Virus record (IMG/VR): IMGVR_UViG_2923360383_000002
Length of the DNA: 35,428 nt
Reading direction: 5' to 3' (one strand)
Source of the DNA: a virus
Lineage: Duplodnaviria; Heunggongvirae; Uroviricota; Caudoviricetes
The position numbers and the translations under genes are program-made. Below are positions 2,701 through 30,333 of the stretch, one piece after another. The notes below the pieces were generated by a model. It worked only from the letters and a program-made list of their open reading frames with translations. It was not told the origin of the DNA and made no database searches. Numbering within the stretch: the first letter of the stretch is position 1; each line of letters starts with the position of its first letter.

Positions 2701-3300
2701 TCAGAATTTATAACCGACACCCACGATGAAACCGTCAGTGCGCCAGTCGCCACTGCCGGAGCCTTCATAAGCAATATCAATGGCCACGGATTCGGTCGGG
2801 TTAAACTGCACGCCAGCCCCCCACGCCAGAGAGGTATTGCTGTGGCGACCGTCATCACTTCCGGTCAGCACATCGTGCGTATCCCCCTTGTTGTCGGTCA
2901 CCTGAAGATAATCCCCGGAAAAAGTCGACACACGGCTGTAAGTCACACCCGCGATCGCATACGCGCTGAACCATTCATTCACGCGCACAGATGGCCCCGC
3001 CATCACGCTGAACCAGCGGTTACGCACAGAATCCTCATGCCAGCGGGTATCGCTGTAGTGCGTTTTTTTCTCATCTTCAGCATTGGCATAACTGAAGGAC
3101 GTAATCAGCCCCAGTGTGTCCGTAAACTCATAACGGTATTTCACGTTAATCCCGTTCAGATTATCGCTGCCGGGAGCGTTCGTACGGGCATGAAGATACC
3201 CTGCGCTCAGTGTGGACTGATGTTCAGACGCCCATGCAGGCGCACCGGATACGGACAGACAGATGGCTGCGGACAAAATGGCTGCACAAACTTTACGCAT
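2701..3300 (-). CDS. lom: Outer membrane protein Lom (Ail/Lom family)
   Basis: Translation has signal peptide and C-terminus IAYEGSGSGDWRTDGFIVGVGYKF matching lambda Lom; position between J and stf as in lambda. Confidence 0.9.
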   Translation of the reverse strand: MRKVCAAILSAAICLSVSGAPAWASEHQSTLSAGYLHARTNAPGSDNLNGINVKYRYEFTDTLGLITSFSYANAEDEKKTHYSDTRWHEDSVRNRWFSVMAGPSVRVNEWFSAYAIAGVTYSRVSTFSGDYLQVTDNKGDTHDVLTGSDDGRHSNTSLAWGAGVQFNPTESVAIDIAYEGSGSGDWRTDGFIVGVGYKF

Positions 3301-21781: not shown

Positions 21782-22321
21782 ATGGATATTAAAGATAAAA
21801 TCAATACCATTTTGTTATGTGACATTGCCATCCACCTAGGTATCGAAACTGATATTGATCCACAGCTTGTTAAATATGCTGTGTCATCTGGTAATGATTG
21901 GGTTATCAAGGCCGAATATTCACATTTGGATGTTGACGAACCAAGTAAAGAAGATCGTGATTTTGTTACTGCTGTCTTGAATATGTATCGCGGACTTTCC
22001 AATGCTTTCAGGAAACTTAGTGATGACGAGCAAAAAGAATTAGTCCGTGACCATCATCTAAAAATACATGATGGGGCAATTCAGCTCCCAGGTTTCGACG
22101 GTAATAATGAATGCGATTACTTCAGTATCATTGAGGCATATCAGAAAATTGATCGCTTCCCCGAACAGAAACAGCCCATTGCCAATACTCATTCACGTAC
22201 AGAACATCTCTATAACGCAATGCTTGATGAGTTTAAGAAAATTGACGCTGTAAATCGAAGCTGGGATTTATCGAAGGAAGAACTGGCATCCATTCTTTCC
22301 ACAGCTCCACGCAGTTTCTAA
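21782..22321 (+). CDS. Hypothetical protein, possibly YfbU-family-like; plus-strand cargo gene between lysis and packaging modules
   Basis: ATG with AGAGGG RBS; AT-rich; weak pattern resemblance to YfbU family (recollection only). Confidence 0.4.
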   Translation: MDIKDKINTILLCDIAIHLGIETDIDPQLVKYAVSSGNDWVIKAEYSHLDVDEPSKEDRDFVTAVLNMYRGLSNAFRKLSDDEQKELVRDHHLKIHDGAIQLPGFDGNNECDYFSIIEAYQKIDRFPEQKQPIANTHSRTEHLYNAMLDEFKKIDAVNRSWDLSKEELASILSTAPRSF

Positions 22322-24671: not shown

Positions 24672-24746
<75 letters not shown>

Positions 24747-24749
24747 ATA

Positions 24750-24825
<76 letters not shown>

Positions 24826-24827
24826 AC

Positions 24828-24904
24828 TGGACCGCCACCGGGGACTCGAACCTCGCACACTCAACTTAAAGGGTTGACGCTCTTTCCTGATGAGCTAGTG
24901 GCGG
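24828..24904 (-). tRNA. tRNA-like gene; anticodon UUU (Lys) by position, with atypical C33 and mismatches - possibly divergent or a pseudo-tRNA
   Basis: 7-bp acceptor stem (CCGCCAC/GTGGCGG), TTCGAGT T-loop, CCA end; anticodon loop CCTTTAA; T-stem has one mismatch. Confidence 0.45.
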
Positions 24905-24905
24905 T

Positions 24906-24981
24906 TGGTGGCCCTTGCTGGATTTGAACCAGCGACCTGGCGATTATGAGTCGCTCGCTCTCACCACTGAGCTAAAGGGCC
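24906..24981 (-). tRNA. tRNA with CAU anticodon, ileX-like (Ile2 if lysidine-modified, otherwise Met)
   Basis: GGCCCTTTAGCTCAGTGGTGAGAGCGAGCGACTCATAATCGCCAGGTCGCTGGTTCAAATCCAGCAAGGGCCACCA; resembles E. coli ileX more than elongator Met. Confidence 0.8.
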
Positions 24982-25277: not shown

Positions 25278-26159
25278 ATGGAGAAGTCAACTTCCTTTAA
25301 GGTGTTTTATGACGCCAATGATAAAGAATTGTCAAAGCATGCTATTGACGCTGAAACACTTGGTAAATCAATACTTTCCATGACAACTCTTATTAATAAA
25401 GCTGATAGCTTGTTAAATGAGGGCAACAAATCTGTAAAAATTTTAGTCACTGCCCCCATCCAGAAAGGATCTGTGGGTATTGCATATACTGTAGTGCAAC
25501 TCCTACCGCATGCAATTGACGTTCTGCAAACTATCGGGATTGTTGGAACTGTGGGCGCAACAGCTCATGCCACCGCTTTATCGTTAATAAGACAATTAGG
25601 CTCAAAAAAAGTTGTTTCGATTACCAAAAAAGCAGGAACAGATAAGGCTGTTCTTGAATTTGAAGATGGTGAGATTGAATGCTCATCAGCAGTTGCAACC
25701 TTGGTAACTGAGCCAACAATTCGGGATGCGTTGATTTCTGTTGTTCAGGCTCCTTTAGATGGTAAAGACTCTCCCATTTTTAAAATTGTAGATGAGAATG
25801 ATAAAGTTTTGCTCAAGCTTGAAGGAGAGCAAACTGAAGAGATTAAACCCCTTCCCAGAGGGACGCTTTTGACCAAAACAGTTGAAGAAAAAGAGGTTAA
25901 TGTAAAATTTACCCAAGTTAACTTTCATAGTGAGAAGGGGTGGAGGATGGACTACAACCAAGATGAGCACTCCGTACTACTTACAGACTATGAGTTTTTA
26001 GCTAAAGTAAGGCAAGCAGAGGGAACGATCACTAGTGAAGATATGTTTTCTGTGCTTCTAGAAACAACACGTACAACTTCCGCACGAGGACAAACAGAAA
26101 AGTATGTTATCAAGAAAGTACTTCGTCATCGCGTGATTCAAGGGAAAAAATTGATCTAG
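25278..26159 (+). CDS. Hypothetical soluble protein (293 aa), first gene of the plus-strand cargo operon
   Basis: ATG with AAGGA RBS; AT-rich codon usage unlike flanking phage genes; no Walker or other motif recognised. Confidence 0.6.
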   Translation: MEKSTSFKVFYDANDKELSKHAIDAETLGKSILSMTTLINKADSLLNEGNKSVKILVTAPIQKGSVGIAYTVVQLLPHAIDVLQTIGIVGTVGATAHATALSLIRQLGSKKVVSITKKAGTDKAVLEFEDGEIECSSAVATLVTEPTIRDALISVVQAPLDGKDSPIFKIVDENDKVLLKLEGEQTEEIKPLPRGTLLTKTVEEKEVNVKFTQVNFHSEKGWRMDYNQDEHSVLLTDYEFLAKVRQAEGTITSEDMFSVLLETTRTTSARGQTEKYVIKKVLRHRVIQGKKLI

Positions 26160-26174
26160 CTTTGGTAGAAACTA

Positions 26175-26438
26175 ATGATTCAGCAACAGCTTTTACAAAT
26201 CGTTTTTTGGTTGGGGGTGCTTGTAAGTCTCCCGACCTTCTATCGCTTTGTTTATGCTGGTTCCGCGTTGTTGTGGCGTAAAATTTTTCCTACAAAAATC
26301 GTAGAACTAAGGTTTTACAGTGCTGAACGCATGCTTGAAAAAACGATTACTATCCACTTAGATGCTAAAGATGGAAAGAAGATCGTTGAGCTAATTGATG
26401 ATGCAACCGCGCACAGGCAGTCAAATAATGAGCGGTGA
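26175..26438 (+). CDS. Hypothetical small membrane protein (87 aa, one N-terminal hydrophobic helix)
   Basis: Starts 16 nt after the ORF A stop; hydrophobic segment LLQIVFWLGVLVSLPTFY. Confidence 0.5.
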   Translation: MIQQQLLQIVFWLGVLVSLPTFYRFVYAGSALLWRKIFPTKIVELRFYSAERMLEKTITIHLDAKDGKKIVELIDDATAHRQSNNER

Positions 26439-26826
26439 TAAAAAAAGCATTTTAAGTAGTAATTCTGGTCTAACAACAGGCGGGATTGGCGCAGTTCTAA
26501 CTACATTGGTACCACTATTGGCGCCTGACCCTAATAGTGAATGGAGAGCTTTTTTGTATGCCCTCGCCCCATTAGTGTCAGCAATGCTAACCTACATTAT
26601 GTTGTATGTTATCAATCGACATGGACTTGAGTCTCCAGCCGAAGCCGCCCTAAGAAATCGCCTTGAGCGAGATTTAAAAGGTATTGATGAGCAACTGAAA
26701 AGCCCTCATCTAAGCGAGAAATTTAAAGCTGAGCTTATTGCTGATCGGGAAGAAACTGTTAGAAAGATTGTTAACATTGGTAAGAATGTAGAAGTTTTAC
26801 CTATTGAAGTTACTAAAGAAGAATAA
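26398..26826 (+). CDS. Hypothetical membrane protein (about 132-142 aa, two hydrophobic helices plus charged C-terminal region)
   Basis: Overlaps the ORF B 3' end (alternative starts ATG 26398 or ATG 26428); hydrophobic segments GIGAVLTTLVPLLAP and AFLYALAPLVSAMLTYIMLYVI. Confidence 0.5.
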   Translation: MMQPRTGSQIMSGDKKSILSSNSGLTTGGIGAVLTTLVPLLAPDPNSEWRAFLYALAPLVSAMLTYIMLYVINRHGLESPAEAALRNRLERDLKGIDEQLKSPHLSEKFKAELIADREETVRKIVNIGKNVEVLPIEVTKEE

Positions 26827-28654: not shown

Positions 28655-28933
28655 TTACCTCCAGATGCGTTGCTGGAATGTGCGGGACGGACGCGGTGGG
28701 CGCTCGGAGTACGGCAGCCTGACGTAGATTATCCAGTGACGATAATCGAGGCTGAGGGCTTTCTTAACCTCGTATCCACGCCTGCGGTAACACTGAATTA
28801 TCCATTCAGCCTGCTCTTCAGTGCATGGAGGATGCTGGAACCAGTCTGATTTGAATGCGTGAAAACGCCGTCCGCACCTACTGGCAAAGACGGCAGAATC
28901 ATTAGAATTGTGTAATTTGGTATCGTGCGCCAT
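28655..28933 (-). CDS. Hypothetical protein (about 92 aa from MAHDTKL; track ORF extends to 29062)
   Basis: ORF between hok and the DUF968 gene; start uncertain. Confidence 0.4.
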   Translation of the reverse strand: MAHDTKLHNSNDSAVFASRCGRRFHAFKSDWFQHPPCTEEQAEWIIQCYRRRGYEVKKALSLDYRHWIIYVRLPYSERPPRPSRTFQQRIWR

Positions 28934-29100
28934 CGGTTGTCTCTGCTGGCGCAGCAGGTGCCAGTTGTTCAGGCTGGCGTGCGAATTGTAAACCAGAATG
29001 CCAGGAAAAAACAAAACCCGCCGAAGCGGGTTACGTGCGGGTGCGTTGAGGATGCCTGACACATCAGAGGTGGCGAGGGATTTCTCCCCCGCCAGGTCTC

Positions 29101-29256
29101 TTACTCCTCAGGTTCGTAAGCTGTGAAGACAGCGACCTCCGTCTGGCCGGTTCGGATTCGTACCTCGCAGAGGTCTTTCCTCGTTACCAGTGCCGTCACA
29201 ATGACGGTTAAACAGATGACGATCAGGGCGATTAGCATCGCCTTTTGCTGCTTCAT
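29101..29256 (-). CDS. hokD: Hok/Gef-family type I toxin (HokD/RelF-like, 51 aa)
   Basis: MKQQKAMLIALIVICLTVIVTALVTRKDLCEVRIRTGQTEVAVFTAYEPEE matches HokD; AGGAG RBS; in-frame upstream extension to 29313. Confidence 0.85.
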   Translation of the reverse strand: MKQQKAMLIALIVICLTVIVTALVTRKDLCEVRIRTGQTEVAVFTAYEPEE

Positions 29257-29493
29257 AGCCTGCTTCTCCTTGCCTTTCGGCGCGTAAGAGGCTAACCTAG
29301 ATTTGCCGTTCATAGATTGAGCCTCAGATTAATGTTAAGCGTCTTGCCGGACGCGTAATGTTAACTGGGGCTTTTCTCTATCTGCCTTTCAGTGTTCATG
29401 CCTGAGACAGATAGCCTCAAGCACCCGCAGCCATTCTACTTAACTCACGTCACCTCGCCAATATGAAATCAATCAGAAAGGTGATCCATAAAA

Positions 29494-30180
29494 TCACTCC
29501 TTCTCTTCTTTTCCGTAGTGGAGTTGGCCAATTTTGATAAGAGGGCGTCCCTGAGATTTGCGGTGTAGATTGGTATCGCGCAGAGAATACACACAGCCAC
29601 AATATTCCTGCTGATAGAATTTTTCGCGCTTGCTGATTTCAATCATACGGGACGAGCCGCCCTGCTTGCGCCAGTTATAATCCCAGTACACCATACCCGG
29701 ATAATGCGCAACAGCTCGCCGCCCACACTCGTTAACCTGCTGCATATTTTTCCAGCGTGAAATGCCCAGTGAACTACTGATCACACTGAAACCATTTTCA
29801 GCAGCGTACAACGCTGTCCGCTCAAAACGCATGTCAAAACACATGGTACAACGGATCCCCCTCTCAGGCTCCCATTCCATTCCTTTGGCACGTTCAAACC
29901 AGTTGTCGGTGTCGTAATCAGCATCGATAAACGGCACGCCGTGTTGTTCAGCAAAGCGAATATTTTCATCCTTACGAATTAAATACTCTTTCTGAGGATG
30001 AATGTTCGGGTTGTAGAAAAAGATGGTGTAGTCGATTCCCGAGGCCTGAAGCGCCTCCATCACTTCACCGGAACATGGAGCACAGCAAGAGTGCAGTAGT
30101 AGTTTGTTTGCCCCGTTTGGGAGCTCCAATTTAGGCCGTTTGAAATCAGCAATAGTCATAAATATTTTTATTGGGGTCAT
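29494..30180 (-). CDS. DUF208-family protein (QueH-like, epoxyqueuosine reductase family)
   Basis: N-terminal [11 protein letters not shown] cysteine motif and further Cys residues (CTMCFD, CGCVYS) typical of DUF208/QueH as I recall; unverified. Confidence 0.45.
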
Positions 30181-30333
30181 GAAAATAGCACAGAGTGTAG
30201 CATCAGAGCAGGGCTATCGGGAATATATGTCTAAATCTGGTAATATCTGGTTTTGACGCAAAGCGGACAACCACGCTGGCTCTACCCTGCGCCATGAAAA
30301 TGTCAATTCACATCTGAACTAATGCTCTTTAAT

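Follow-up and report, generated by a model that had tools for sequence, protein, structure and literature searches.

Results

Organization of the prophage and its cargo

The window, by which we mean the whole stretch of 35,428 nucleotides analysed here, is a lambdoid prophage in which tail, head, lysis, Q and replication modules can be recognized. Read along the minus strand, its genes begin with cI-like and cro-like regulators, YdaT, an O-like HTH protein and a DnaC/IstB-like ATPase, continue with DUF1627, DUF977, queH, hok/mok together with sok, DUF968, RusA and the Q antiterminator, and end with four tRNAs, the lysis, terminase, head and tail genes, Lom and the tail fibre (Table 1). The queH gene belongs to the early-right region, with the replication genes on one side and Q on the other, and has the same orientation as the early-right operon, in agreement with the preliminary description of this DNA, which had placed a DUF208/QueH-like gene in the early region of a prophage. 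A prophage integrated beside tRNA-Ser/mtfA in Escherichia coli 94EC is 99.4% identical to the window over 16.5 kb.

Table 1. Coordinates of queH and of the other features discussed in the text. Positions refer to the window unless another sequence is named.
Feature	Position	Strand	Basis or remark
queH coding sequence, 221 aa (stop codon included)	29494..30159	-	PF02677 match; identity to WP_000150294.1; starts of homologues
Longest ORF, 228 aa	29494..30180	-	Read from the sequence
7-codon N-terminal extension, first ATG at 30180	30160..30180	-	First ATG unconserved; homologues do not align
N-terminal cysteine motif, residues 27-37 (C32, C33, C36 in the 228-aa ORF; C25, C26, C29 in the 221-aa protein)	30070..30102	-	Sequence; alignment with T. 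maritima QueH
CTMC, residues 111-114 (C111, C114)	29839..29850	-	Aligns with T. maritima C87, C90
CGC, residues 194-196 (C194, C196)	29593..29601	-	Aligns with T. maritima C169, C171
Candidate extended -10 promoter, TGCTACACT	30194..30202	-	34 nt upstream of ATG 30159; comparison of upstream regions
hok/mok toxin gene (PF01848) and sok antisense RNA (RF01794, 110 bits)	29101-29426	-	Directly downstream of queH
isrK-like Rfam match	29011-29092	-	Rfam; weak, 27 bits against a gathering score of 50
Three-ORF block between the Q antiterminator and the tRNA array	25278-26826	+	Opposite to the phage operons; all hypothetical according to PGAP
Four-tRNA array: Gly-UCC, Thr-UGU, Lys-UUU, Met/Ile2-CAU	24672-24981	-	Closely follows Q; head of the late operon
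YfbU-family gene between the lysis and terminase modules	21782-22321	+	Opposite strand; other prophage cargo
Lom/Ail outer-membrane protein between J and the tail-fibre genes	2701-3300	-	Other prophage cargo
queH of Escherichia phage HannyBb	L009 6001-6687		
queH of the K. pneumoniae IncFIB/IncFII plasmid pRHB38-C06_2	L011 5001-5669		Neighbours are a TonB fragment and methionine-salvage genes
Slot downstream of queH, O157:H7 Z1626	L012 5851-7861		
Slot downstream of queH, TUM14759	L010 6281-6619		

Variable cargo occupies the position after queH, namely hokD in the window, a Dcm methylase and an NgoMIV-type restriction enzyme in O157:H7 Z1626 and DUF1971 in TUM14759; in three further contexts that were inspected queH follows DUF1627-DUF977 of the same replication-module type. 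Stx phages such as 933W and VT2-Sakai share the hok/sok segment at ~95% identity and do not carry queH. The isrK-like match overlaps the only terminator-like hairpin of the region (29032-29015); the match is located downstream of hok and inside a long ORF at 28655-29062. The first protein of the three-ORF block comprises 293 aa and matches the PADLOC candidate defence family PDC-S42 (E 4e-27) while having no Pfam domain.

The tRNA array had been noted in the preliminary description as forming a notable combination with a tRNA-modification enzyme on the same prophage. The array is indeed present; the functional pairing of the two does not hold. Queuosine is found only on the tRNAs with a GUN anticodon, i.e. 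those for Asn, Asp, His and Tyr (PMC9508795), and none of the four phage tRNAs has such an anticodon (the CAU-anticodon tRNA is named Ile by PGAP). A functional link between queH and the array was rejected for this reason, and the substrates of QueH must therefore be host tRNAs. The two are co-occurring translation-related cargoes at different loci and not a functional pair. The related prophage of TUM14759 has only Thr and Gly. The composition of the array could serve codon supply or the replacement of tRNAs cut by anticodon nucleases.

Two further associations suggested by the genomic context were considered and rejected. No Tgt/DpdA, QueC, QueD or QueE was found in the annotation of the identical prophage or in Pfam scans of the remaining ORFs of the window, arguing against a 7-deazaguanine DNA-modification cluster, and a component of a defence system was rejected because PADLOC gave no match for the QueH protein. 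Nevertheless, a neofunctionalised QueH homologue, one that would act on 7-deazaguanine bases in phage DNA or in defence or counter-defence, deserves mention given that other phages use Q-pathway enzymes for DNA modification and that hok/sok, an R-M system and a PADLOC candidate defence gene are found in neighbouring slots. PreQ0-derived DNA bases are also mentioned in PMC5372724. However, besides the missing pathway partners and the missing PADLOC match, the protein is 87-92% identical to housekeeping QueH and has the same invariant residues, leaving little room for a changed specificity, and we consider neofunctionalisation highly improbable.

Family assignment of the QueH protein

The protein matches the Pfam family PF02677 (QueH) with 221.5 bits (E 1.1e-65; curated cutoff 23.5 bits) across profile positions 1-174 of 175. 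It is identical to RefSeq WP_000150294.1, a MULTISPECIES Enterobacteriaceae entry that is found on at least 1000 contigs and named 'epoxyqueuosine reductase QueH'. By sequence, the entries for Thermotoga maritima QueH are its sole solved relatives (E 8e-22, ~29% identity). An AF2 model built from 20 homologues and of moderate confidence (pLDDT 72, pTM 0.74) had T. maritima QueH as all of its top five PDB matches (7LC5 and 7LC7 among them; E 2e-9, TM 0.73 normalised to the target), followed by TtuA and LarE, which are [4Fe-4S] PP-loop enzymes, and by other PP-loop folds; the predicted structure is consistent with the adenine-nucleotide-alpha-hydrolase-like fold seen in PDB 7LC5. An NCBIfam search with the window protein returned no model match despite its PGAP name. 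In PHROGs the protein is assigned to phrog_3217, annotated as 'unknown function', the profile of which spans residues 41-228 only. The profile begins past the CCAPC motif, suggesting that the gene calls in the member phages are truncated.

The CCxP(C/D) ... CxxC ... CxC set of conserved residues is complete in the window protein (C32, C33, C36, C111, C114, C194 and C196), with C32, C33 and C36 aligning with C9, C10 and D13 of T. maritima QueH. All seven positions carry the majority residue of 85 diverse representatives, i.e. near-full-length family members from a search of 1.8 billion cluster representatives, and are invariant in 20 close homologues. The two CTMC cysteines are present in 82/85 and 81/85 of the diverse members, and the CGC positions are Cys in 60 and 65 of those that are neither gapped nor truncated there. 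At the position of T. maritima D13, Cys is found in 70 of the 75 ungapped sequences; therefore, CCAPC is normal for the family and T. maritima QueH is the outlier, and the idea that CCAPC is a deviation from the CCAPD of the solved enzyme was rejected. We take the conserved cysteine set to be the putative metal-site residues, as reportedly assigned by Li et al. 2021; the details of the site given here rest on the alignment and on the titles of PDB entries, which include C9S and D13N mutants of T. maritima QueH.

In total, the suggestion of a QueH-type protein, drawn originally from the N-terminal motif and additional cysteine clusters, is borne out by the HMM search against DUF208/QueH with its full-length match, by the sequence and fold matches to T. 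maritima QueH, by the presence in the ORF of all three clusters and by the recovery of all seven family-conserved positions among the expected metal-binding residues. Judged by its sequence, the prophage gene is a genuine and intact queH for the B12-independent enzyme of the last step in queuosine synthesis. The naming of this exact protein as QueH is already known from RefSeq/PGAP for ~1000 E. coli genomes.

Translation start and expression signals

The most likely start of queH is the second ATG of the longest ORF (M8, at 30159), giving a product of 221 aa. We prefer this start because homologues begin at M8, the first ATG is unconserved and the identical gene is annotated by PGAP as 221 aa. 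Specifically, the M8 position is the start in 20/20 close homologues, none of which aligns to the 7-codon extension, and the first ATG is missing from the TUM14759 prophage and from the plasmid and chromosomal copies of queH. The seven codons between the two ATGs are probably an untranslated 5' leader. Reading the sequence before the ATG revealed no Shine-Dalgarno motif.

Across contexts a TGnTAnAnT element is present 31-35 nt before the conserved ATG, and the remaining flank is unalignable. The element has the form TGCTACACT in the phage, IncF-plasmid and Erwinia copies and the forms TGCTACAAT and TGCTAAAAT in the two contigs of chromosomal origin (L008, L007); the Providencia version is TATACT at 32 nt, lacking the TG. 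This element looks like an extended -10 promoter that moved together with queH. A generic scan for sigma-70 -35/-10 pairs gave nothing on the coding strand upstream of queH, the candidate -10 being missed as well. Riboswitch control was rejected: Rfam, at gathering scores and at E<=1, detected no cobalamin, preQ1 or other RNA upstream of queH and gave only sok and the weak isrK-like match, both of which are downstream.

A terminator scan found none flanking queH and none between DUF977 and queH. Because no terminator separates queH from the upstream early genes, expression could also come solely from read-through from the phage pR. This possibility bears on what the gene is used for: QueH may be functional and serve the lytic cycle instead of the lysogen, being made from the delayed-early right operon after induction and tuning the host Q-tRNAs for phage translation. 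Besides the missing terminator, the orientation of queH with the early-right operon between the replication genes and Q fits such a role, as does its retention in the same slot by HannyBb, a plaque-forming free phage. On the other hand, the conserved promoter-like element is also found upstream of the chromosomal copies, the slot otherwise holds cargo acting in lysogens (hok/sok, an R-M system) and, as we infer, tRNA turnover during a short cycle leaves little time for a change in modification. A role in the lytic cycle appears unlikely on balance; it is compatible with our main explanation, the two not being mutually exclusive.

Distribution of queH

A queH coding sequence is present in 994 of 5426 complete E. 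coli genomes (~18%), including O104:H4, an O157:H7, an O111:H11, APEC O18 and EC958. These copies are found at many chromosomal positions and in many lineages, 984 of the 994 having at least 80% of full length; a few strains have two copies, and all listed copies are annotated 'epoxyqueuosine reductase QueH'. In the E. coli contexts inspected, queH is always located in lambdoid prophages, after the replication module and adjoining variable cargo. Among 50,697 phage records, HannyBb is the sole isolated phage with a close copy (97% aa identity over the 221-aa protein; 95% by tblastn of the 228-aa ORF). In HannyBb, the gene occupies the same slot, has different replication genes upstream and is annotated 'hypothetical protein'.

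An allele with 84% nt identity is carried by Klebsiella IncF plasmids, eleven Klebsiella records matching at 83.5-84.8% nt. Thus queH is mobile on more than one kind of element, i.e. on prophages and on conjugative Klebsiella plasmids. In comparison, queG is found in 5425 of the 5426 complete E. coli genomes. QueG is also present in Photorhabdus and Rahnella, genera that have members with a chromosomal QueH.

Origin of the phage-borne gene and selection on it

Outside phages, the nearest relatives are the proteins that bear the name QueH in Enterobacter, Klebsiella, Citrobacter koseri and E. albertii (87-92% aa identity), followed at greater distance by those of Erwinia (86% aa) and Providencia (83% aa). 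In Erwinia and Providencia the chromosomal neighbourhoods of queH are purL/glrK and tmcA/purC, and in two contigs at 90% (L007, L008), which are non-phage chromosomal, queH lies beside a LysR regulator, an acetyltransferase and CsbD. A neighbour-joining tree built without bootstrap places the three phage alleles in a single clade, with the allele of the Klebsiella plasmid and K. variicola as sister, and ~65 nt of upstream sequence are common to the plasmid copy and the phage copies. The simplest reading of these data is a single capture from an Enterobacteriaceae replicon. Synonymous sites are saturated between phage and chromosomal copies and, therefore, either the capture took place long ago or its donor has yet to be sampled.

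Comparison of the window allele with that of HannyBb (dN 0.013, dS 0.279, dN/dS 0.048) indicates that phage-borne queH is under strong purifying selection. The gene could instead be carried along as a passenger, with no role under selection in E. coli, and persist by linkage to successful prophage modules. Such a reading would agree with the universality of queG, which makes queH redundant whenever B12 is available, with the restriction of queH to ~18% of E. coli genomes and with its lack of a name in phage databases (PHROG 3217, 'unknown function'). However, three features taken together argue against a decaying passenger: between phage-borne alleles dN/dS is 0.05 at a dS of 0.28, all catalytic-site residues are retained, and 984/994 copies reach at least 80% of full length in many lineages and integration sites. 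Moreover, queH is retained while the flanking cargo varies. We consider a mere passenger very unlikely.

Discussion

Proposed role of the prophage QueH

In E. coli, oQ-tRNA is made by way of Tgt and QueA (PMC5372724, PMC9508795) and is reduced to Q by QueG (PMC5372724). QueG depends on cobalamin, and a passage of PMC4646009 that cites Frey 1988 states that the conversion of oQ to Q in E. coli and Salmonella needs a cobamide; because of this dependence of QueG, E. coli is unable to finish Q without cobalamin. QueH is a non-orthologous, iron-dependent replacement of QueG (PMC5372724, PMC9508795). Staphylococcus aureus has both enzymes, and their different expression profiles have been read as reflecting cofactor availability (PMC13443448). 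Given that queG is near-universal in E. coli, the activity of a prophage queH is always one that the cell already has, though with another cofactor requirement.

Combining the family assignment with the context and distribution data, we suggest that the prophage gene encodes a functional oQ reductase QueH that is iron-sulfur dependent and cobalamin independent, a reading to which we assign a probability of about 0.7. As a QueH, it would be expected to bind a [4Fe-4S] cluster with an iron next to it. Most likely it would finish Q on host tRNAs without need of cobalamin, in the lysogen, during infection or both. In this model, queH would be a moron derived from an Enterobacteriaceae chromosome or plasmid, from which it was captured along with a short promoter region of its own, and would now occupy the variable slot that separates the replication module of lambdoid prophages from their nin/Q region. 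Expression in E. coli would be driven from this promoter. Host Tgt and QueA would supply oQ, and the phage QueH would convert oQ to Q at position 34 of tRNA-Asn, -Asp, -His and -Tyr, completing Q on host tRNAs when cobalamin is unavailable.

That lysogens benefit from this activity under B12 limitation is a conjecture, which we hold with less confidence than the enzymatic assignment, because no phenotype is known to distinguish oQ from Q. More broadly, we tentatively suggest, at rather less than even odds, that about one fifth of E. coli strains may have been turned by a lambdoid prophage into cobalamin-independent producers of queuosine, in which Q34 is kept mature and a fitness edge is gained. 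Queuosine influences how NAU/NAC codons are decoded, and E. coli that has lost it is affected pleiotropically in metal and oxidative stress (PMC9508795).

If this scenario is correct, a B12-independent bypass in ~18% of strains would be an unusual lysogenic conversion, one that acts on the epitranscriptome and not on toxins or surfaces. Q34 would stay fully mature under B12 scarcity in the gut or after the loss of BtuB, e.g. through phage or colicin resistance, and lysogens would have a translational or stress-fitness edge. A phage-borne queH could also confound studies of tRNA modification that treat E. coli as a QueG-only organism. Phage annotation resources miss the gene, PHROG 3217 being of 'unknown function' and the HannyBb copy a 'hypothetical protein'.

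Our search of the literature found no discussion of QueH/DUF208 as phage or prophage cargo, the matches to DUF208 being to other DUF numbers, and a search on the accession WP_000150294.1 returned nothing relevant. The biology of phage-carried queH is apparently undescribed in the searchable literature. Clearly, the enzyme family, the reaction and the protein name are all established, and what we describe is a known gene in an under-discussed context and not a new system. Accordingly modest is the hypothesis that we offer, namely lysogenic conversion to B12-independent queuosine synthesis.

Comparison with known systems

The prophage enzyme can be set beside four known systems. The first is T. 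maritima QueH, of solved structure (PDB 7LC5, 7LC7, 9DEU; IPR003828), which has the same fold and whose C9, C10, C87, C90, C169 and C171 align with cysteines of the window protein. The two differ at Asp13 of the T. maritima enzyme, where the window protein has Cys. Moreover, members of the gammaproteobacterial subgroup, the window protein among them, share a conserved basic tail of ~25 residues at the C-terminus and an additional invariant cysteine, Cys152, neither of which is present in the T. maritima enzyme; finally, the queH of the window is carried by a phage, whereas that of T. maritima is chromosomal.

QueG likewise converts oQ34 to Q34 (EC 1.17.99.6), acting on the tRNAs that QueH acts on and being present in the same cells (PMC5372724). 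Its fold and cofactor are unrelated, and it needs cobalamin whereas QueH does not (PMC4646009, PMC13443448). In E. coli, queG is core (5425/5426 genomes) and queH is accessory and prophage-borne (994/5426).

The QueH proteins of Enterobacteriaceae chromosomes and of the Klebsiella IncF plasmid are the closest counterparts, sharing length and invariant residues with the phage copy at 87-93% aa identity. These genes have the candidate extended -10 at the same distance from the start as in the phage and, on the two chromosomal contigs inspected, differ in being located in non-phage neighbourhoods, whereas the queH of the window lies between the phage replication module and hok/sok.

With lambdoid morons such as lom and bor of lambda or hok/sok of the Stx phages, queH shares the character of an accessory gene of host origin that is inserted between conserved modules, is variable in presence and in its neighbours and, in the case of queH, plausibly has its own promoter. 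Classical morons usually also have their own terminator, whereas none was detected for queH. The cargo described here is a tRNA-modification enzyme and has no surface, toxin or defence function of the kind known from such genes.
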